Shown piece by piece: positions 2,643 to 33,665 of a stretch of 41,190 bases of DNA. The notes beneath the pieces are model-generated. The model saw nothing but the letters and a program-made list of their open reading frames with translations. It had not been told where the DNA came from and did no database searches. Origin of the DNA: a virus; the IMG/VR virus record IMGVR_UViG_3300045988_109834, positions 1 to 41,190 of that record, one strand, 5' to 3'. The stretch's first letter is position 1. Every line of letters begins with the position of its first letter. A program made the translations under genes and the position numbers.

Positions 2643-3220
2643 ATGCCTATGAATTACCCACCTCGCTGAATATCGGCGGGGTGTCTTTTTCTATCAGGAC
2701 GGATTTTCGCGCAATCATAGACATTCTGATCGCACAGAATGACCCAAATCTGAACGCATATGGAAAAAGATTAGTAATGCTAAAGATTCTTTACGAAAAC
2801 TGGGAGAATATCCCACCGGAGCATGTGGAAGAAGCCTGCAGGAAGGCTTGCGAATTTATTGACTGCGGACAGACGGACGATGACCCGGGAAAACCTAAAC
2901 CACGTCTGATGGACTGGGGGCAGGACGGAGAAATGATCATACCTGCGGTAAACAAAGTAGCAAACACGGAGGTTAGAGCAGCACCATACATGCATTGGTG
3001 GACGTTCTTTAGCTATTTTATGGAGGCGGGCGAATGCTTATTTAATACAGTACTTGGCATTCGTTCAAAGAAAGCACATGGTGAAAGACTTGAGAAGTGG
3101 GAGAAAAAGTTTTATTACGATAACAAGAAGATCATCGATATAAGAACACAACTTTCAGATGAAGAACAGGCATATAAAGACGCACTGAATGAAAAACTCA
3201 ACCGGCTAGGAGGTGGATGA
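2639..3220 (+). CDS. Tail assembly protein (Gp15-like)
   Basis: 193-aa ORF ATGA-coupled to the previous ORF and ending at the tape measure start. This is the typical siphovirus arrangement. Confidence 0.55.
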   Translation: MNAYELPTSLNIGGVSFSIRTDFRAIIDILIAQNDPNLNAYGKRLVMLKILYENWENIPPEHVEEACRKACEFIDCGQTDDDPGKPKPRLMDWGQDGEMIIPAVNKVANTEVRAAPYMHWWTFFSYFMEAGECLFNTVLGIRSKKAHGERLEKWEKKFYYDNKKIIDIRTQLSDEEQAYKDALNEKLNRLGGG

Positions 3221-3221
3221 T

Positions 3222-6008
3222 GTGGCAGCAGACGGTACAGTCGTAATTGATACGAGACTTGATACTTCAGGAATCCGAAATGGAATGCCAGAAGCTGAAA
3301 GAACAGCCATAAATAGCGCTTCCCGAATGGAAGGGTCTTTCAATAAACTTGGAAGCACGATAAAGAAGATTGGCACACTCATTGGCACAGCACTGGCGAT
3401 TGGAAAACTTGCACAATTTGGCAAGGAGTGTATAGAACTTGGCTCTAATCTGGCAGAAGTCCAGAACGTGGTAGATGTTACATTTACAACCATGTCAGAT
3501 AAGGTCAACGAATTTGCTAAAAGTGCCATGACATCTGCCGGACTATCCGAAACAATGGCAAAGCAGTACACTGGTACTTTTGGAGCTATGGCAAAAGCCT
3601 TCGGATTCTCAGAGGAGCAGGCGTACAATATGTCTACTCAGCTGACTCAGCTTACAGGTGATGTTGCGTCTTTCTATAATCTCGATCAGGGAGAAGCATT
3701 CACAAAGCTGAAGAGCGTCTTTACTGGCGAAACGGAATCTTTGAAGGACCTCGGCGTTGTAATGACCCAGACAGCCCTCGATCAGTTCGCACTGGCAAAT
3801 GGTTTCGGAAAGACCACATCTGCCATGACAGAGCAGGAGAAGGTTGCGCTGCGACTGAAATTTGTAACAAGTCAGTTATCGGATGCTTCCGGAGACTTTG
3901 CCCGAACGTCCGGATCCTGGGCGAACCAGGTCAGGGTGATGCAGTTGCAGATCCAGTCTCTGAAAGCTACAGTCGGACAAGGGCTGATTAACATCTTCAC
4001 TCCGGTCATAAAAGTGATCAATATTTTGCTTGCTAAACTTGCCACAGTCGCGAATGCCTTTAAGAGCTTCACAGAGCTGATAACCGGAAACAAATCATCC
4101 GGGCAGACGGAAGCCAGTGGAGCGGGGCTTACCGGAACTGATCTGTCAGCCACAGAAGATGCTTATGGCAGCGCTGCTGATGGAGCTGATAGTCTGGCTG
4201 ATGCTACGCAGAATGTAACAGATTCCACGAAGGACAGCACAGGGGCACTGAAAAAGCAGAATAAGGCACTGAAGAAGAACATTGCATCGTTTGATGAATT
4301 GAATGTCATAGGCAAGGATAACTCAGACACGTCCGACTCAACAAAGACTCCGGCTATAGCAGATATAGGAATCGGGGATATTGGCAATGTGGACTACGGA
4401 AAGCTTGCCGATGTGTCAGATGAAGCAGACAAGGCAACCAGCGCAGTAGGAAAACTGGCGAAAAAGCTAAAAGAACTTGGAGACATCTTCAAGGGTGGGT
4501 TCTTTGAGGGACTTGGAGACTACAAACCGATGCTGAATGAACTAATCAGTGATCTTGGGAATATCAAGAAGTATCTGACAGATATTTTTACGGATCCTGA
4601 TGTCAAGAAAGCTGCTTCGAAGTTTGCAAAAAAGGTAGTTAAGAATCTCGGAAAGATAACCGGTTCAATAGCAAAGGTTGGACTTACCCTGGCAGCTGCA
4701 CTTGTTGGGGGAATAGAATCTTATCTGTCAAAGAATGTTGACCGAATCAAGAAATTTATCATCAAGATGTTTGATGTCGCTGGAGAAATCGCAGATGAAA
4801 TAGGTGATTTATCGGCAGTTTTTGCAGATATATTCTCTGTGTTTGGCGGACAGACCACGCAGAACATCATAGGAAGTGTGATACAGATCATATCAGATAC
4901 CGTTATGACGGCATTGACGTTGGCCGGGCAGATGCTTAGAGATTCTATCAACCTGCTCCTGGTTCCATTACAGGAGAATGCCGAACTGATTAAACAGACT
5001 ATTGAGAATACATTACAGCCAATAGAGACAGTAATTACGGCTATCGCAGATGCGTGGCAGATTGCTATGGATGAACTTATCGCTATGTATGATGCTCATA
5101 TCAAGCCTTTTTTTGATTCTCTTGCTAACGGGCTATCTGAAATACTCACAGTATTTTTAAATGCGTATAACAGCTACATAGTGCCTGTATTAGACCAACT
5201 GGCAGCTAAGATTAGTGAGATCATGGCAGGACCTGTAGGTGATGCTATACATAATGCAATCGAACTTATCGGAAAAATCGTAGATGCACTGAAAGTTCTA
5301 TGGGAAAACGTATTAGTACCATTGGTTAAGTTCATTATTGGCAATGTGGCTCCGCAAATAGCAAGTGCTCTTAGTATTATTGGCAATGTATTTCTGGAAT
5401 TGTTTGATTCGGTAAGCGAAGTAGTTGCTGGAATACTGAAAGTCCTTGGCGGCGTGATCGATTTTATTGTTGGTGTATTTACAGGTGACTGGAAACGTGC
5501 GTGGGAAGGCGTAAAGAATATCTTCAAAGGCGTGTTCGAAGCACTGGTAGGAATTGCAAAAGTTCCGATCAATGGCGTTATTGGGTTAATCAACGGCATG
5601 ATCAGGGGGATTATTTCTGGTGTAAATACAGCTATCGGAGTCCTTAACAAGATGAAGATTAAAGTCCCTGATTGGGTAATGGGAATTGGGGGAAAAACTT
5701 GGGGGTTTACAATCCCGACGATGACAGCTCCACAGATCCCGTATCTGGCAAAAGGTACAGTTGTTCCTAGAAATGCCGGAGAATTTGCAGCAGTTTTAGG
5801 TGATAACAAGCGTGAGACAGAAGTTGTATCTCCACTATCAACGATGAAACAAGCATTGCTGGAAGCGCTGAAAGAGTCTGGAAACAGCGGCAGCAGTTCG
5901 CCCCAGTACATTGTACTGAATATTGATGGAAACGAATTCATTCGCTGGCTTCGCGATCAGAATGGACAATACAGGAACCGGACAGGCTTCGGAATCTTTG
6001 AAGGGTAG
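3222..6008 (+). CDS. Tail tape measure protein
   Basis: About 930-aa ORF, Ala/Gly/Ile-rich with long helical and hydrophobic stretches, downstream of the chaperones. GTG at 3222 lies 9 nt from AGGAGG. The ORF track start at 3213 abuts the SD. Confidence 0.9.
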   Translation: MAADGTVVIDTRLDTSGIRNGMPEAERTAINSASRMEGSFNKLGSTIKKIGTLIGTALAIGKLAQFGKECIELGSNLAEVQNVVDVTFTTMSDKVNEFAKSAMTSAGLSETMAKQYTGTFGAMAKAFGFSEEQAYNMSTQLTQLTGDVASFYNLDQGEAFTKLKSVFTGETESLKDLGVVMTQTALDQFALANGFGKTTSAMTEQEKVALRLKFVTSQLSDASGDFARTSGSWANQVRVMQLQIQSLKATVGQGLINIFTPVIKVINILLAKLATVANAFKSFTELITGNKSSGQTEASGAGLTGTDLSATEDAYGSAADGADSLADATQNVTDSTKDSTGALKKQNKALKKNIASFDELNVIGKDNSDTSDSTKTPAIADIGIGDIGNVDYGKLADVSDEADKATSAVGKLAKKLKELGDIFKGGFFEGLGDYKPMLNELISDLGNIKKYLTDIFTDPDVKKAASKFAKKVVKNLGKITGSIAKVGLTLAAALVGGIESYLSKNVDRIKKFIIKMFDVAGEIADEIGDLSAVFADIFSVFGGQTTQNIIGSVIQIISDTVMTALTLAGQMLRDSINLLLVPLQENAELIKQTIENTLQPIETVITAIADAWQIAMDELIAMYDAHIKPFFDSLANGLSEILTVFLNAYNSYIVPVLDQLAAKISEIMAGPVGDAIHNAIELIGKIVDALKVLWENVLVPLVKFIIGNVAPQIASALSIIGNVFLELFDSVSEVVAGILKVLGGVIDFIVGVFTGDWKRAWEGVKNIFKGVFEALVGIAKVPINGVIGLINGMIRGIISGVNTAIGVLNKMKIKVPDWVMGIGGKTWGFTIPTMTAPQIPYLAKGTVVPRNAGEFAAVLGDNKRETEVVSPLSTMKQALLEALKESGNSGSSSPQYIVLNIDGNEFIRWLRDQNGQYRNRTGFGIFEG

Positions 6009-13140: not shown

Positions 13141-13917
13141 TTGAGAGCAGATGAGGTATATGCAATTCTTAAAGGGAAACTTATTAAACTTACAGAAGAC
13201 ATAAAATCAATGGGTGACTGGGAACCCATACAGCACAAGGGAACCGTCCAGACTGCAGATGATCTTCCGGCTGATGCAAAAGAAGGCTGGATGTATAATA
13301 TTGCCACAGACTCTATCTATGGAGCAGCTGGCATGAATGTAGTAAAGACTGCCGATGGATGGGATCCAATGGGACCGATCATTAACATGGCTCCGTATTT
13401 AATGAAGAAAGAAGCGGAAGAACTCTACCAACCGAAGGGAAATTACCCGACAAAAGAAGAGGTTAAAGAAGGATATCAGCCAAAAGGCAATTACCTTACA
13501 AACATTCCACAGGCAGCAGGAAATGTTCTTGGCGGTATCAAAGCTGAGCCAAAAACAGAAAAAGAGGTGGTTCCGGCAAAGATCGATCCTGACACCGGAA
13601 AGATGTACGTCCCAGAACTTCCTGGCTCAGAAGACCTGTCAAAAGAAGATACAACGCAGCAGATTCTCGAAAAATTACAAGAAGTGATCCCTCTTATCAA
13701 TCAGATTGCACAGAACGGAACCGCAGGGTCTGTAAATGGCTTTTCTTTTGTCCATGGCGATGATGGAAGTGTAATGATAACCTATACACCGGATGGAGCA
13801 TCGGAAGCAGAAGTTGCTGTATTCCCTCGGGAAACAACACAGAAGAAGATCTCTAAGGCGACAAAAGAGATTGCGGACAGTTTAAAGATCATAGCAGGAA
13901 AGGAAGATAAAGCATGA
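13141..13917 (+). CDS. Tail fibre-like protein
   Basis: 258-aa ORF with a TTG start 10 nt after GAGGAG. It contains an internal YQPKGNY(P/L)T duplication and is ATGA-coupled to the DGR target gene. Confidence 0.55.
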   Translation: MRADEVYAILKGKLIKLTEDIKSMGDWEPIQHKGTVQTADDLPADAKEGWMYNIATDSIYGAAGMNVVKTADGWDPMGPIINMAPYLMKKEAEELYQPKGNYPTKEEVKEGYQPKGNYLTNIPQAAGNVLGGIKAEPKTEKEVVPAKIDPDTGKMYVPELPGSEDLSKEDTTQQILEKLQEVIPLINQIAQNGTAGSVNGFSFVHGDDGSVMITYTPDGASEAEVAVFPRETTQKKISKATKEIADSLKIIAGKEDKA

Positions 13918-15134
13918 GTTTAGATATCATGAAAGAAAGCACACAGCAGGAGATCCTCAGCAATATGCAGCTGATATCTGCATTAACAGCCTCAATCGCA
14001 GGCGCGACTCCTGGAAGTGTGACAGTTGAAAGATGGAGCGACGTAGGAGATATCATTGTAACTGGTCTTGGAAAGAAGATATTTGCAATCGGAGATAAGT
14101 TTACAGATACATGGAAAGATACAGCTGATAACAGATCATATGAATTTCCGTGGAGATGCAACTGTTTCAGAAACGTAGAACTGGAAGACGGCAGTACAGT
14201 TCCTGGAATGTTATTACAGATGGCATATGCAACCCCATTCGCTGTGCAGTTCTCAAACGCAAGAGCATTCTTGCGTTGTCCGAATGGTTTAGCGGCTGGT
14301 ACCTACAATGTCACATTTGGAGATACCTGGGGAAGCAAAGACGCAAAAGCAAACACCACATGGCAGTTTACCCTTACAAAAGCAGTCCCGACAGGCGGAC
14401 GTTTGGCTGGATTCATCCAGATGCCGGACGTGGCAGCAACAAGCTGGAAAGTTACAGCTTACGCCGCAGATGGAATCACAAAGCTTGAAACAGTTCCCGT
14501 AACAAGCGGATCAGAAGGGACCTCACTTGGAACAATGAATCTTTCTTCCAGAAACGGAGATTTGAACTCCATGCAGGAAACAGGATATGGATGGAACAGA
14601 TGGAAGACATCTGCATACCGACAGTACCTGAACAGTGACAAGCCAAAAGGACAGTGGTGGACACCGCAGGACGAATGGGACGTAGCACCAGATCAGTTGG
14701 CTACAAAGGACGGTTTCCTGCGGGGTATGCCGAAAGAGCTTCTTGACCAGATCCAGCCAGTAAAAGTGATCACATATACGAATACGGTAAATGATGGCGG
14801 AAATGCTGATGTGACTTATGACAAAGTATTCCTCCCGGCACTTGGTGAAATGTATTATGAACCTCAGATTGATGGAGAGGGAGAACCGCATGACTACTGG
14901 AAAGAACGCAGCGGATCAGCAACAAAACTGAAACAGTACACAGCATATCCGAACATGATCACATATGCAGTTGAGAACCATACATCAGCTCAGATTGTGC
15001 GCTTGCGCTCGGCGTTTCGTGGCGTTGCGCTTTACGCCTGGGTTGTCAACTCAGATGGCGGCGCCGGCTACTACTACGCGTTCAGCGCGTATCGTTCCTC
15101 CCCGCTTGTCGCAATCTGCAGAAAATCAGCATAA
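13914..15134 (+). CDS. DGR target protein: tail-fibre/receptor-binding protein with a C-terminal variable region (C-type-lectin-fold-like)
   Basis: 406-aa ORF whose last 48 codons contain the VR. C-terminus: QIVRLRSAFRGVALYAWVVNSDGGAGYYYAFSAYRSSPLV. Confidence 0.88.
   Translation: MSLDIMKESTQQEILSNMQLISALTASIAGATPGSVTVERWSDVGDIIVTGLGKKIFAIGDKFTDTWKDTADNRSYEFPWRCNCFRNVELEDGSTVPGMLLQMAYATPFAVQFSNARAFLRCPNGLAAGTYNVTFGDTWGSKDAKANTTWQFTLTKAVPTGGRLAGFIQMPDVAATSWKVTAYAADGITKLETVPVTSGSEGTSLGTMNLSSRNGDLNSMQETGYGWNRWKTSAYRQYLNSDKPKGQWWTPQDEWDVAPDQLATKDGFLRGMPKELLDQIQPVKVITYTNTVNDGGNADVTYDKVFLPALGEMYYEPQIDGEGEPHDYWKERSGSATKLKQYTAYPNMITYAVENHTSAQIVRLRSAFRGVALYAWVVNSDGGAGYYYAFSAYRSSPLVAICRKSA
14987..15110 (+). 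repeat. DGR variable repeat (VR)
   Basis: 124 bp aligning gap-free to 15647-15770 (offset 660). There are 19 mismatches, all opposite TR adenines. Confidence 0.93.
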
Positions 15135-15159
15135 TCCCCGTACCCACGGATACGGGGAT
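15134..15159 (+). promoter_or_regulatory. Hairpin downstream of VR (candidate DGR target-recognition cruciform)
   Basis: ATCCCCGTA (15134-15142), 8-nt loop, TACGGGGAT (15151-15159). It begins at the last base of the target stop codon, 24 nt after the VR end. Confidence 0.55.
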
Positions 15160-15173
15160 AGAAAAGAGGAAAC

Positions 15174-15626
15174 ATGTCAGTAAATAAAAGTGATAGGAAT
15201 GTAGCGGACACTCCACAGAACAGACATCTGGATGCAGCATGGAAAGCCAGAGGGCTTTCACTGCATACAATGAAAATCTGCAAAAACAAGAATGTCTTTC
15301 TTCCGGAATATCAGTCCGCACTCACAGACGATATCATCAGACTCTCAAAGGACATCTATTTAAAAGTCCGCAGGTCAAACAACATCAGAATGGATGTCAA
15401 AGACCCGGCAAGAAAAGCGAAGAACTGGGAAGTAAGAAGTAATCTGCAGGTATCAGCAATACTGGATTGCAACGATATGCTCTATCTGATAGAACTTGCC
15501 AGAGCATTGTTTCATCTGAAAGGGAAGAAAGCGGAATACTGGTCTGATCTTACATTGGAAACGAGAGAATACATCAAAAGATGGCATGAATCCGATGTAG
15601 ACAGATATAAAACATACACAAGATAA
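15174..15626 (+). CDS. avd: Accessory variability determinant (Avd)-like protein
   Basis: 150-aa basic, predicted helical ORF with an AAGAGGA SD, located between VR and TR as in BPP-1. The call is mainly positional. Confidence 0.6.
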   Translation: MSVNKSDRNVADTPQNRHLDAAWKARGLSLHTMKICKNKNVFLPEYQSALTDDIIRLSKDIYLKVRRSNNIRMDVKDPARKAKNWEVRSNLQVSAILDCNDMLYLIELARALFHLKGKKAEYWSDLTLETREYIKRWHESDVDRYKTYTR

Positions 15627-15646: not shown

Positions 15647-15770
15647 AGCTCAGAATGTGCGCTTGCGCTCGGCGAATCGTGGCAATGCGAATAACGCCTG
15701 GAATGTCAACTCAGATGGCAACGCCAACAACAACAACGCGTTCAACGCGTATCGTTCCTCCCCGATTGTC
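15647..15770 (+). repeat. DGR template repeat (TR)
   Basis: Non-coding copy of the VR with 32 adenines and 13 in-frame AAY codons. Translated in the VR frame it reads QNVRLRSANRGNANNAWNVNSDGNANNNNAFNAYRSSPIV. Confidence 0.93.
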
Positions 15771-15926
15771 TTACATAGGGCATCATAGCTGTTACATAGT
15801 AACGGTTGTCCCGAAGGCATTAGACAAGGAGCCGAAATCCCATCCGAAAGGATAAACAATACCCGTTACGATGCACGTGACTCCACACGGAGCCTGCCAG
15901 TGCTATCACGTGGCGGGACAAGATAA
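15647..15926 (+). ncRNA. Putative DGR template RNA (TR plus 156-nt spacer upstream of the RT)
   Basis: By analogy with the BPP-1 TR-Sp RNA. The spacer contains CACGTGA...TCACGTG pairing. Transcript ends are unknown. Confidence 0.45.
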
Positions 15927-17078
15927 ATGAAAGAATATATAACAGGGTTTGACCAGCTTTATGGATCAGCGTGGAAATGCCAGGCAAATGTAACCTGGAA
16001 GCCTTCGGTAAAGTCATTCATGTTAAATGCCGAAGAGAATATCCATAGAATGCACAAACAGACTCAAAGCGGTACCTGGAAACATGGAAAGCCAAGAAAG
16101 AAGATCATCACATACCCGAAGAAAAGGGAAGCCCTGAGCATCCCGTACAAGGACAGAGTGTATCAGCGCAGCATTAATGATAACTCCCTGTATCCGCAGA
16201 TGACAAGAAGCTTCATATATGCGAACTGCGCCTGCCAGACAGGAAAAGGTACAGATTTTGCCCGAAAACTGGTTAAAAAGTATATGTGGAATTATTTCTG
16301 CAAATATGGGAACCAGGGATACGTAATGCAGATAGATATTCATGGCTATTATCAAAACATGAAGCATGAGGAAGTAAGTAACTGGTTTGAAGCAAAAGTA
16401 GATCCAGATACTTACGAAATGTCAATGAGCGTACTGGATACACAGTACAGTGGAGACACCGGATATAATCCCGGAAGCCAGATGGTGCAGATTGCGGGCA
16501 TATCCTTATTAGATCCGTTAGATCACCATATCAAAGAACAACTCCATGCGCACTATTACATCCGGTATCAGGATGATTTCTGGATTCTTTGGTATGACTA
16601 CGAAGAATTGAAAAGTTGGTTTGAAATTATAAAGATAAAACTAAAAGAAAAGGGATTCGAAGCAAATGAGAAGAAATCCCGCATAACCCCATTGTCGAAA
16701 GGATTCCGGTTTTTGGGATTTGATTACAGAATGACGGAAACCGGAAAGATAATCATGACTCTGAACTCTCAAAACACAAAACATGAGAGAAAGAAGCTTG
16801 TCCGGATGACTCACAAAGTAGCCAAAGGTGAAATGGATGATTCCACAGTGGATGAAAACTTTAGATGCTGGAAGAATAACGCCAGCAAAGGGAATTCAGA
16901 GAAATTGATAAAACGAACAGAGAGATACTTGGAACGTCTCAGAAAGGAGCATTATGCAGTACCAGAAAAAAACATTAAGCCCACAGGAAGAGGCAGAAAA
17001 CGAGATCCTGAAAGCGGCTGTTGCAAGCCAGCAGGAAGAACTGACAAAAACAAAACTTCTTCTTCAGTATGTAGCTGA
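15927..17078 (+). CDS. DGR reverse transcriptase
   Basis: 383 aa with RT motifs KREALSIPYKDRVYQ, QIDIHGYYQNM, PGSQMVQIAG, YIRYQDD and FRFLGF. No maturase/endonuclease or intron features. Confidence 0.92.
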   Translation: MKEYITGFDQLYGSAWKCQANVTWKPSVKSFMLNAEENIHRMHKQTQSGTWKHGKPRKKIITYPKKREALSIPYKDRVYQRSINDNSLYPQMTRSFIYANCACQTGKGTDFARKLVKKYMWNYFCKYGNQGYVMQIDIHGYYQNMKHEEVSNWFEAKVDPDTYEMSMSVLDTQYSGDTGYNPGSQMVQIAGISLLDPLDHHIKEQLHAHYYIRYQDDFWILWYDYEELKSWFEIIKIKLKEKGFEANEKKSRITPLSKGFRFLGFDYRMTETGKIIMTLNSQNTKHERKKLVRMTHKVAKGEMDDSTVDENFRCWKNNASKGNSEKLIKRTERYLERLRKEHYAVPEKNIKPTGRGRKRDPESGCCKPAGRTDKNKTSSSVCS

Positions 17079-19664: not shown

Positions 19665-19736
19665 AGAGAGAAGATGCAATCTATATGTAGAAATACAACA
19701 ACTGAATTAACACGAAATTTTCTTAAAACATATGAA

Positions 19737-19757
19737 TAGCCAACACATAGCTAACAT
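19737..19757 (+). repeat. Two TAGC(C/T)AACA direct repeats (candidate integrase arm sites, distal arm)
   Basis: TAGCCAACACATAGCTAACAT. Same motif as the array at 19967-20011. Confidence 0.5.
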
Positions 19758-19865
19758 TTGGACATAAAATGCTTGAAAAACAGAGACTTTCAGTTTCCAT
19801 CGAGGAAGCTGCTAAAGCTGGCAAGTTCTAATTCATATAAAAGAAAATAAAGTGTAAGCGCGTTG

Positions 19866-19903
19866 AAAGTGCCGTAAACTCATGGGTTTGCGGCACTTTT
19901 GTT
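19866..19903 (+). terminator. Intrinsic terminator of the late/lysis operon
   Basis: 14-bp stem AAAGTGCCGTAAAC / GTTTGCGGCACTTT with a 6-nt loop, then TTTTGTT. Confidence 0.85.
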
Positions 19904-19966
19904 ATGTGGAGATAAAAGGTACGACTTTAGAACGAAACAGTCTCAAAAAGCACAAAAAAATTTGTG

Positions 19967-20011
19967 TAGCTAACACATAGCTAACACGTAGCTAACACAC
20001 GTAGCTAACAC
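19967..20011 (+). repeat. Four tandem TAGCTAACAC repeats (candidate integrase arm-type binding sites, attP region)
   Basis: TAGCTAACACA TAGCTAACACG TAGCTAACACACG TAGCTAACAC, located 45 bp from the 3' end of int. Confidence 0.6.
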
Positions 20012-20055: not shown

Positions 20056-21120
20056 TTATTTTGTAATTTTCTCCATCTCATTTTTCAGATCCTCCAGAGT
20101 ACGGTGGGTATACACTTTTTCTGTGATATCCCGCACTTCATGTCCAACAATCATTTTCAATATATACTCATTCATATTGACATCTTTTGCCTTTGTGATA
20201 AAGGTGTGCCTGGTATCATGTGGCTTATGATCCATTCCAAGCCTGGACATCACCTTTCTGAAACGTCCACGATATTTGTCATAAGTCAGGTGGGTACCTT
20301 GCTGACCGTCCGGATCATTGAAAAGGTATTCGCTTCCCATCCTGGTAGCCAGATTATAATTTTTGATGACCAATTCGGTCACTAATGGATGGATCGGAAC
20401 AACTCGGTTCTTTCCTGCGTCCGTTTTCAATCCTCCGGTGTAGGTCATGTTTTCGAGATTAATATCTGCAATCTTAAGCACAGCCAGCTCCTGCGGACGC
20501 CATCCAGAATAAATACCGATCAGGATCATATCAACAAAAGGAATTTCGAGATGCTGCCAGAGAGATTCGATTTCCTGATCAGAAAAAGGAACGCGGACGA
20601 TCTGAGGGGCAGCACGCTTAACTCCGTCACAGAGCTGCGCATAATCCTTATCAACAATCTCATGTTTCATAGCGTATTTATACATAAGATTAAATACACT
20701 CTTGATCCTGCCTTTTGTGCTGTCACCCACATCTGCATTTTTTATTGTCTGCTCCAGGTGCTCCACACGGATATCCTTCATTCGCATATCATACAGAGGC
20801 TTGCAGTATCGATACGCAGCAGTGACTGTTCTGGTACTGGAAGCACCGATTGTAGGAAAATAGCTGGCAGTCCATTTCTCATAAACATCTGAGAAAGTAA
20901 GAGTTTCAGCGTCCAGATCGTAAGGATTTTCGTTATAATGCGTCAGAGCAGTAATAGCTTCCTGCTTGGTAGCAAAATATCCGATCGTCTTTCGAACCTG
21001 CTTTGTTTTTTGACCTTCCTCATCAATGTTCCATTTCATTGTCTTAACTGCCATCCAGGGTCTTCGCCTAAAACGGTCTTTTAATTTATACACAGATCCA
21101 AAACCATTTGGTAGTTTCAT
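20056..21120 (-). CDS. int: Tyrosine site-specific integrase with an N-terminal AP2-like arm-binding domain
   Basis: 354 aa. C-terminal catalytic signature: HDTRHTF ... VGHEV ... VYTHRT. N-terminus: GSVYKLKDRFRRRPWMAV. Confidence 0.93.
   Translation of the reverse strand: MKLPNGFGSVYKLKDRFRRRPWMAVKTMKWNIDEEGQKTKQVRKTIGYFATKQEAITALTHYNENPYDLDAETLTFSDVYEKWTASYFPTIGASSTRTVTAAYRYCKPLYDMRMKDIRVEHLEQTIKNADVGDSTKGRIKSVFNLMYKYAMKHEIVDKDYAQLCDGVKRAAPQIVRVPFSDQEIESLWQHLEIPFVDMILIGIYSGWRPQELAVLKIADINLENMTYTGGLKTDAGKNRVVPIHPLVTELVIKNYNLATRMGSEYLFNDPDGQQGTHLTYDKYRGRFRKVMSRLGMDHKPHDTRHTFITKAKDVNMNEYILKMIVGHEVRDITEKVYTHRTLEDLKNEMEKITK
20367..20381. repeat. TGACCAATTCGGTCA, a degenerate copy of the 15-bp TGACCGAWTCGGTCA palindrome
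   Basis: The 20-nt string ATGACCAATTCGGTCACTAA matches 29773-29792 at 19 of 20 positions. It lies inside int. Confidence 0.45.
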
Positions 21121-33592: not shown

Positions 33593-33665
33593 GGACATTT
33601 AGCTCAGTAGGTAGAGCAACCGGCTCATAACCGGTCGACCCTGGGTTCGAGTCCCAGAATGTCCA
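33593..33665 (+). tRNA. tRNA with anticodon CAT (elongator Met, or Ile2 if lysidine-modified)
   Basis: Full cloverleaf by hand: GGACATT/AATGTCC acceptor, GCTC/GAGC D-stem, ACCGG-CTCATAA-CCGGT anticodon arm and CTGGG-TTCGAGT-CCCAG T-arm. CCA is not encoded. Confidence 0.9.

Follow-up and report, generated by a model that had tools for sequence, protein, structure and literature searches.

A 41,190-nt stretch of viral DNA (IMG/VR record IMGVR_UViG_3300045988_109834; hereafter the window, meaning this whole stretch) carries, near the end of one gene, a sequence that recurs imperfectly a short way downstream. This raised the question of whether the locus is a working diversity-generating retroelement (DGR) and, if so, what kind of protein it diversifies. 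We consider it highly probable that the window holds a complete, active DGR of a temperate, siphovirus-like human-gut phage, and that this DGR diversifies a DUF6273 protein with a probable receptor-binding role.

A repeat finder run on the window returned one pair of repeats, two ungapped copies of 124 nt at an offset of 660 (Table 1). The copy inside the gene, the variable repeat (VR), departs from the non-coding template repeat (TR) at 19 positions, and the TR base is A in 19/19 (10 changes to T, 7 to G and 2 to C). Adenine accounts for 32 of the 124 nt of the TR, which gives a hypergeometric p of ~3e-14 for mismatches confined to A. A chance repeat or a simple duplication is ruled out by this adenine specificity. 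The placement of an A-templated VR/TR pair at the end of this gene, as put forward in the original prediction, is thus borne out. A search of the window for a third copy or a second VR found none.

Table 1 Coordinates of the DGR and neighbouring features in the window
Feature	Coordinates	Strand	Basis or remark
Upstream ORF, 258 aa, TTG start	13141..13917	+	ATGA overlap with target
DGR target gene, 406 aa	13914..15134	+	ORF; DUF6273; phrog_19280
Variable repeat (VR)	14987..15110	+	Codons 358-399 of target; 105/124 identical to TR
Span of 13 AAY-templated hypervariable codons	14994..15086	+	Codons 361, 368, 371, 373, 374, 377, 379, 383, 385-388, 391
G+C-rich 3' end of VR, IMH-like, GCGTATCGTTCCTCCCCGCTTGTC	15087..15110	+	C15105 versus A in TR
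G+C-rich hairpin	15134..15159	+	Between target stop codon and accessory gene
Accessory gene in Avd position, 150 aa, pI 9.6	15174..15626	+	ORF; adjoins target
Template repeat (TR)	15647..15770	+	Non-coding; between accessory gene and RT
Conserved motif GACAAGGAGCCGAAATCC	15823..15840	+	In TR-RT spacer
Reverse transcriptase (RT), 383 aa	15927..17078	+	RVT_1 E 1.3e-12; phrog_1423 E 1.8e-63

Translated in the VR frame, the TR contains QNVRLRSANRGNANNAWNVNSDGNANNNNAFNAYRSSPIV, matching the sequence given in the original prediction, and 30 of its 32 adenines occupy codon positions 1 or 2. Comparison of the two repeats codon by codon agrees with the earlier count of 13 templating AAY codons, 12 of them rewritten in this genome (I361, F368, V371, L373, Y374, V377, G383, G385, Y386, Y387, Y388 and S391); N379 is the sole AAY-templated codon left unaltered. 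These codons, 361-391 of 406, fall in the last 46-48 residues, where the last 48 had been named. The scaffold between them is constant (VRLRSA, W376, V378, G382, A389, P397), and four further codons contain one mutable A each (CAG360, GAT381, TAT393 and ATT398). NNY codons specify 15 amino acids and no stops, so that K, E, Q, M and W are not encodable. The predicted figure of 15^13 variants is sound as arithmetic (1.9e15), and as a measure of actual diversity it is an upper bound only.

The diversified protein belongs to DUF6273: the Pfam domain matches residues 218-384 with an E value of 6.7e-11 and a score of 42.8 bits (gathering threshold 23.5), and the protein also matches a PHROG family of unknown function, phrog_19280 (E 5e-34). 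We modelled the target with AF2 on an alignment (A3) that included 50%-cluster representatives, obtaining a pLDDT of 93.6 and a pTM of 0.89; an earlier run on a shallow alignment of 30 close homologues (A2) had reached a pLDDT of 43 and was discarded. The model comprises an N-terminal helix (8-28), a beta-rich domain (~62-208) and the C-terminal DUF6273 domain (~216-406), and it places the diversified residues on the last strands and loops of the latter (362-394).

A C-type-lectin fold of the Mtd/TvpA kind had been proposed for this region. The domain that profile searching recovers is DUF6273, which is termed C-lec-like in the literature, and to that extent the proposal stands; any structural likeness to Mtd and TvpA is putative. 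Foldseek neighbours of the model were DUF6273 proteins only, with Mtd, TvpA or any C-type lectin not retrieved at significance, hhalign of the target family against Mtd was negative (probability 0.7%), and PDB sequence and profile searches with the target gave nothing meaningful and no Mtd. The only solved structure to match the model significantly is the N-terminal DUF6273 domain of the Thomasclavelia ramosa IgA peptidase (PDB 9qa6; Foldseek E 6.5e-6, 214 columns), which differs in being a cellular, non-diversified metallopeptidase domain, with 19% identity and a query-normalised TM-score of 0.33. The target has at least 2911 homologues. At 50% identity, 1272 clusters contain its C-terminal domain, and in these proteins of 133-1287 aa the domain almost always comes last. 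A broader interpretation, to which we give a low probability, would see the combination of helix, beta domain and C-terminal DUF6273 as an abundant, separate class of DGR scaffold, structurally distinct from the Mtd-type C-type lectin, in which DUF6273 would serve as a portable 'diversifiable tip' on many N-terminal anchors and the ligand need not be a bacterial receptor.

The genomic surroundings bear on what the target does. Genes run in the order tape measure, 1859-aa Big_3/LRR protein, small ORFs, target, DGR, holin-like gene and endolysin. Since the tail module ends with the target gene, the encoded protein is most likely a host-recognition (receptor-binding) protein whose specificity the DGR would redraw. 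Two neighbours of the model in BFVD bear the automatic names 'Tail-collar fiber' and 'Receptor Binding Protein'. The original prediction had called the target a tail-fibre protein, ATGA-coupled to a preceding fibre gene. The overlap is present (13914-17), and the position of both genes, where the tail module closes, fits; the fibre label itself is not matched by any family, as Pfam, NCBIfam and PHROG searches returned no tail-fibre or receptor-binding family for the target, and Pfam, PHROG and profile searches returned no family at all for the upstream 258-aa ORF. In relatives, the N-terminal 110 aa of that ORF match the N terminus of a 767/568-aa protein, and its C-terminal 128-157 aa match a separate 157-aa protein that is likewise coupled to the target by 4 nt.

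Because the 'Hoc-like head decoration' family phrog_10993 matches target residues 222-391, a location away from the tail has to be weighed. The target could decorate the virion or be released as an adhesin, as proposed for tentaclin or Hoc-like DUF6273 proteins, and bind gut mucus, host glycans or other microbial surfaces, in which case the DGR would tune gut retention rather than host adsorption. Consistent with this, non-bacterial ligands have been proposed for DUF6273 tentaclins (PMC10743442), such tentaclins have been reported in the secretome of bacteria in the absence of phage particles (bioRxiv 10.64898/2026.05.08.723808), and the only solved DUF6273 domain is part of a bacterial IgA peptidase (PMC12402451). 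The PHROG match is, however, limited to the shared DUF6273 domain. In tentaclins a DUF6273/C-lec domain opens the protein and Ig-like domains follow; the target has the reverse order, with DUF6273 at the C terminus, no Ig-domain match, no C-terminal Ig anchor and a different, beta-rich domain in its N-terminal part. Its gene, moreover, is translationally coupled to the tail module that it closes. We therefore regard a decoration or adhesin as unlikely and continue with a receptor-binding protein as the preferred reading.

Downstream of the target lie the remaining parts of a DGR. The best solved relative of the RT is 8ub7_A (E 9.7e-9), a chain that has the sequence of BPP-1 Brt; pairwise identity is 21% over 297 aa (E 4e-13), and as judged by this similarity the RT is a homologue of Brt. 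Its active-site motif is YQDD, and it reads PGSQMVQ at the aligned position where Brt has IGSLTSQ. The accessory gene is kept beside the target in three related loci (L001-L003), and two homologues of its product are named 'Avd-like' in NR. The protein itself found no match in Pfam, NCBIfam or PDB profiles, and hhalign against bAvd detected no similarity; its size of 150 aa, its pI of 9.6 and the position of its gene would suit a putative Avd-type protein.

The 3' end of the VR accounts for the one mismatch that the original prediction misread. The change of ATT to CTT at codon 398 had been counted among the diversified codons. Across 12 related loci, the difference between GCTTG in the VR and GATTG in the TR is kept in 11, and the twelfth has T; L398 is invariant within the 90% cluster described below and has an entropy of only 0.24 among 121 homologues. 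VR/TR homology stops 5 nt past this fixed difference. We therefore reject diversification at L398 and read the substitution as a fixed, IMH-like TR/VR difference at the 3' boundary; by analogy with BPP-1, C15105 is the putative mark of the IMH/IMH* boundary. The hairpin that follows has a fold z-score of -2.3 when folded as DNA. Folding the region after the VR locus by locus, as MAFFT misaligns hairpins whose stems differ, revealed an equivalent hairpin of 9-11 bp with differing (covarying) stem sequences in 11/12 loci. An intrinsic terminator was rejected because no T-run follows and no terminator was called there, and the comparison with BPP-1 makes a target-recognition hairpin or cruciform likely. 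In the spacer between TR and RT, at least 10 related loci share CAAGGARCCGAA at ~50-75 nt past the TR. This motif may lie within the spacer of the DGR RNA, which the RT uses; we looked for it in the BPP-1 spacer and did not see it.

Population data show that diversification is real and continuing. Among 121 homologues, the 13 AAY positions make up 13 of the 16 highest-entropy columns of the 406, and K, E, Q, M or W occurs there in 0/1573 residues, against 23% outside the VR. One 90%-identity cluster has 249 members, of which we compared 15 full-length ones. Each has 15-27 differences, 9-12 of them at the 13 AAY positions, and a single AAY position takes 3-9 residue types within the cluster. 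The cassette recurs, with mismatches at TR adenines, in twelve related loci. Adenines account for every mismatch in 8/12; in the other four, the columns with a mismatch or gap number 13-17, and 12-13 of these fall at adenines. Information passes in one direction only, from TR to VR. The TRs of L001 and L002 are identical to that of the window at 123/124 positions, yet the VRs differ; their lone non-A change (CGT to CGC) appears in their own VR too, and L003 has many non-A TR changes, every one mirrored in its VR. The core of the original prediction, AAY-to-NNY diversification at the C terminus, is strongly supported by sequence and population data alike. That the cassette is a relic, with VR/TR differences left by past mutagenesis and homing lost in this lineage, might be argued from an accessory protein unrecognisable as Avd, from the deletion or fusion upstream of the target and from the fact that one genome alone cannot reveal current activity, but is most improbable given that every ORF is intact, the IMH and hairpin are intact, the VR follows the TR at non-A positions, and sampled members of the 249-member cluster differ in the VR with backbone and TR almost unchanged.

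By analogy with BPP-1, an active DGR here would work as follows. The RT would copy an RNA spanning the TR and the spacer into cDNA, probably assisted by the small basic accessory protein, and would misincorporate opposite template adenines. The cDNA would then replace the VR in the target gene; the hairpin and the G+C-rich VR 3' end, where C15105 is fixed, would set direction and boundary. Since the TR confines its adenines almost entirely to positions 1 and 2 of AAY codons, a round of this process would renew as many as 13 residues, each drawn from the 15 amino acids that NNY encodes, free of stops.

The arrangement mirrors the BPP-1 DGR in its mtd-avd-TR-brt gene order, in a VR within the last ~45 target codons, in adenine-specific mutagenesis and AAY-templated variable residues, in a G+C-rich IMH-like end followed by a downstream hairpin, and in an RT homologous to Brt. 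It differs in that the target lacks detectable similarity to Mtd by sequence, profile or Foldseek, as does the accessory protein to bAvd, and in the spacer motif, absent from BPP-1. Closer parallels come from the gut. DGR targets of the DUF6273 type in which the VR lies at the domain end are already published (PMC10743442, PMC11792537), and the system here therefore joins a known kind: it is a further member of an already described class. These include nd4_tgt2 and nd12_tgt2 of human-gut phages (Baykov et al. 2023, PMC10743442), the DUF6273-type targets of the Faecalibacterium prophages Lelie, Roos, Pioen and CP11 (PMC11792537) and the second DGR target of Toutatisvirus (bioRxiv 10.1101/2024.10.15.618418); in phage vB_Fpr_FP01, a 407-aa DUF6273 protein adjoins the RT (PMC13432834). 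Shared features are a DUF6273 domain that has the VR at its C-terminal end, an accessory gene-TR-RT cassette adjoining the target, an AAY-rich TR, Tyr/Ser-rich outcomes at variable positions and gut Firmicutes phages as carriers. The nd4 and nd12 targets differ as single-domain proteins of 234-294 aa, the target here having an extra N-terminal beta-rich part of ~210 aa, and the Faecalibacterium phages differ in host, which here probably belongs to the Lachnospiraceae. Megablast of the cassette against GenBank phages gave no match, and tblastn against phages found three unannotated human-faecal contigs only; identity between phage records, annotated ones included, and the target here is at most 45%.

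The element leaves knowledge of DGRs in general unchanged. It provides a clean, population-validated case of the AAY-to-NNY coding logic, with no forbidden residue in 1573; the gut phage that carries it belongs to a large, uncultured family whose hosts are probably Lachnospiraceae. It also pinpoints, within a DUF6273 domain modelled with confidence, 13 residues as a putative adjustable ligand-binding site, which can help to annotate determinants of host range and to engineer binders.

Within 12–20 kb of the window, a repeat finder returned a single long direct repeat, two ungapped copies of 124 nt spaced 660 nt apart, and across all 41 kb of the window, anchors taken from both repeat ends matched these two sites and no third copy. 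The variable repeat (VR) is carried by the target gene of a diversity-generating retroelement (DGR), and the template repeat (TR) is intergenic. The copies differ at 19 positions, and at all 19 the intergenic copy holds adenine (10 A to T, 7 A to G and 2 A to C), a specificity with a hypergeometric probability of 3 × 10^-14 given 32 A per 124 bases. Translated in the target frame, the TR reads QNVRLRSANRGNANNAWNVNSDGNANNNNAFNAYRSSPIV. As the original prediction stated, it contains 13 AAY codons, 12 of which are rewritten in the VR to I, F, V, L, Y, V, G, G, Y, Y, Y and S. Codon positions 1 or 2 hold 30 of the 32 TR adenines, so nearly all mutable bases are non-synonymous. The proposed diversity of 15^13 is arithmetically right as an upper bound only. 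GAT381 and TAT393, codons with a single A, also vary in relatives.

Coordinates of the cassette and its genomic setting
Feature	Position	Strand	Description
Tape measure gene	3213-6008		
Big_3/LRR_5 protein, 1859 aa	6484-12063		Seven Big_3 Ig-like repeats and a BspA-type LRR_5 region
Upstream ORF, 258 aa	13141-13917		
VR	14987-15110	+	Within the last codons of the 406-aa target ORF (13914-15134)
G+C-rich hairpin	15134-15159		Between target stop codon and ribosome-binding site of accessory gene
TR	15647-15770		Intergenic; 150-aa ORF (15174-15626) on one side, 383-aa reverse transcriptase (RT) ORF (15927-17078) on the other
Integrase	20056-21120	-	
Terminase, portal and major head genes	34.5-41 kb		
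Relatives' large and 157-aa protein region	L001 3135-6004; L003 3555-6004		

Sequences related to the window point to a working element and not to a fossil. Target homologues number at least 2911 in public metagenomes, and the 90%-identity cluster containing the window's protein has 249 members. Among 121 aligned homologues, the AAY-templated positions account for 13 of the 16 top-entropy columns out of 406, with a mean entropy of 2.68 bits against 0.53 elsewhere. K, E, Q, M and W are the five amino acids that lack any NNY codon; beyond the VR they account for 23% of residues, and at the 13 positions for 0 of 1573, a direct population test that the predicted conversion of AAY to NNY passes. 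Comparison of 15 full-length proteins from the 90% cluster with the window protein as reference gave 15–27 differences for each, 9–12 of them at the 13 positions. Every one of these positions, N379 included, varies among cluster members, with 3–9 residue types each and mostly Tyr and Ser as outcomes.

In two related loci, L001 and L002 (target 95% identical), the TR matches that of the window at 123 of 124 positions and the VR is different; the sole non-adenine TR change, CGT to CGC, recurs in their own VR. The TR of a third locus, L003, has many non-A differences, and its VR matches its own TR at every one. These patterns show that information flows from TR to VR. The cassette also recurs, again mismatched at adenines of the TR, in 12 related loci drawn from metagenomes and MAGs: all mismatches fall at adenine in 8, and 12–13 of 13–17 mismatch or gap columns do so in the other 4. 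The sequence-level observation behind the original prediction was accurate, and its central interpretation right.

In the DGR of Bordetella phage BPP-1, it is established that direction is given by the difference between IMH, the G+C-rich 3′ boundary element of the VR, and its TR counterpart, IMH*. Eleven of 12 loci have GCTTG in the VR against GATTG in the TR, the remaining one having T, and the repeat ends 5 nt later. This ATT-to-CTT change, at position 15105 (L398), had been misread as another rewritten codon: the C is near-fixed across loci, and L398 shows no variation in the 90% cluster and an entropy of 0.24 in the wider family. By analogy with BPP-1, the difference at 15105 behaves as an IMH/IMH* difference would be expected to. 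Some 20–25 nt beyond the VR boundary lies a G+C-rich hairpin, and 11 of 12 related loci have a 9–11-bp hairpin at the equivalent position, with differing stem sequences and compensatory stem changes (for example, CCCCGTA/TACGGGG, CCCGGGTGAA/TTCACCCGGG, CGCGGGCGGA/TCCGCCCGCG and CCACGCCTC/GAGGTGTGG). It is not a terminator, because no T-run follows, and a terminator scan does not call it. A hairpin/cruciform target-recognition element has been described in BPP-1; the window hairpin matches it and, by analogy, probably shares its function.

The RT matches RVT_1 and phrog_1423, and its closest solved relative is the BPP-1 enzyme Brt (8ub7_A, E = 9.7 × 10^-9; 21% identity over 297 aa). At residues ~172–185 (16440–16470) it has PGSQMVQ where Brt aligns with IGSLTSQ. 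The accessory protein, of 150 aa, has a basic pI of 9.6 and occupies a conserved position, and NR names two of its homologues Avd-like; profile and PDB comparisons gave no link to Avd, so it is a putative Avd. A motif, CAAGGARCCGAA, is conserved in the TR-to-RT spacer (15823–15840 in the window and the equivalent site in L001–L017, at least 10 related cassettes) and did not turn up in the spacer of BPP-1. It may belong to the RNA element on which the DGR relies to prime cDNA or bind the RT.

The cassette belongs to the DGR class and its target to the DUF6273 family, with that Pfam domain at residues 218–384 (E = 6.7 × 10^-11, over the gathering score). The target also matches phrog_19280, of unknown function (E = 5 × 10^-34), and, through the DUF6273 domain only, phrog_10993, 'Hoc-like head decoration'; NCBIfam, and the PDB by sequence or profile, returned no matches. 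A first AlphaFold run with close homologues only gave a pLDDT of 43, and a diverse alignment was used instead (pLDDT 93.6, pTM 0.89). The resulting model predicts an N-terminal helix, a β-rich domain (about 62–208) and a mixed α/β C-terminal domain whose last five strands (362–401) would bear the VR, placing variable residues on and between strands 362–367, 374–378, 384–388 and 392–394. Interspersed among the variable residues are the invariant VRLRS, W376, V378, G382, A389 and P397.

Foldseek comparison of the model with the PDB yielded one significant match, the Thomasclavelia ramosa IgA peptidase (9qa6, E = 6.5 × 10^-6), whose N-terminal domain is itself DUF6273 (PMC12402451). The genuine C-type lectins CD94/NKG2A and CD23 reached E values of 1.3–1.9 only, Mtd and TvpA were absent from these PDB matches, and the predicted 'C-type lectin' label stays putative. 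A search of predicted viral structures placed DUF6273 proteins from uncultured siphoviruses at the top; three of these proteins span both domains. We rejected the target as a homologue of Mtd, the BPP-1 target (hhalign of the family profile against Mtd, probability 0.7%), and as a tentaclin, given DUF6273 at the opposite end and no Ig domains. A search with the C-terminal domain alone returned 1272 clusters at 50% identity; its near-constant C-terminal placement in proteins of 133–1287 aa marks DUF6273 as a portable module attached to differing anchors.

The gene content of the window is that of a temperate tailed phage. The 1859-aa protein is followed by three small ORFs, the target, the DGR, a holin-like gene and an endolysin, an order that makes the target the final gene of the tail module, as mtd is in BPP-1. 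From this position and analogy, tail receptor binding is the best reading of its role, and 'tail fibre' is a putative label. The 1859-aa protein is a second candidate adhesin, which the DGR does not target. In the close relatives L001/L002 (9837–10832) and L003 (9859–10854), a 331-aa tyrosine integrase is encoded between RT and holin-like gene, in the same direction as these; the window lacks one at that site, and its own integrase lies downstream of the endolysin in the opposite direction. At 33593–33665, upstream of the terminase region, there is a tRNA gene (Rfam RF00005, 74.7 bits), and three copies of a short GTAGCTAACACATAGCTAACA-like repeat at 19725–19997, between endolysin and integrase, may form an attachment or regulatory region.

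The predicted ATGA overlap of the target with the upstream ORF is present in the sequence. That 258-aa ORF matched no family in family and profile searches. Its first ~110 aa resemble the N-terminus of the relatives' 767- or 568-aa protein (64–68% identity), and its last 128–157 aa their separate 157-aa protein (58–67%), which precedes the target with the same 4-nt coupling; from these alignments the ORF appears to be a deletion/fusion product. The 767-aa protein of L001 matches phrog_26878, 'virion structural protein', and the C-termini of these large proteins are swapped, weakly GDSL-like in L001 and with a weak DUF6273 match in the 568-aa protein of L003.

The closest records are human-faecal contigs. 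The top genome match (94% identity) is an uncultured Lachnospiraceae MAG and the others are mostly Lachnospiraceae or other Clostridia, with one cultured strain, Faecalimonas umbilicata DSM 103426 (34% identity). Published gut-phage DGRs already include ones in which a DUF6273 target bears the VR where that domain ends C-terminally, among them nd4/nd12 tgt2, the Faecalibacterium prophages Lelie, Roos, Pioen and CP11, Toutatisvirus and vB_Fpr_FP01 (PMC10743442, PMC11792537, 10.1101/2024.10.15.618418, PMC13432834). Unlike the window target, nd4/nd12 tgt2 lacks the additional N-terminal domain. The window element works like the BPP-1 system and, DUF6273 DGR targets being already known, adds one more example.
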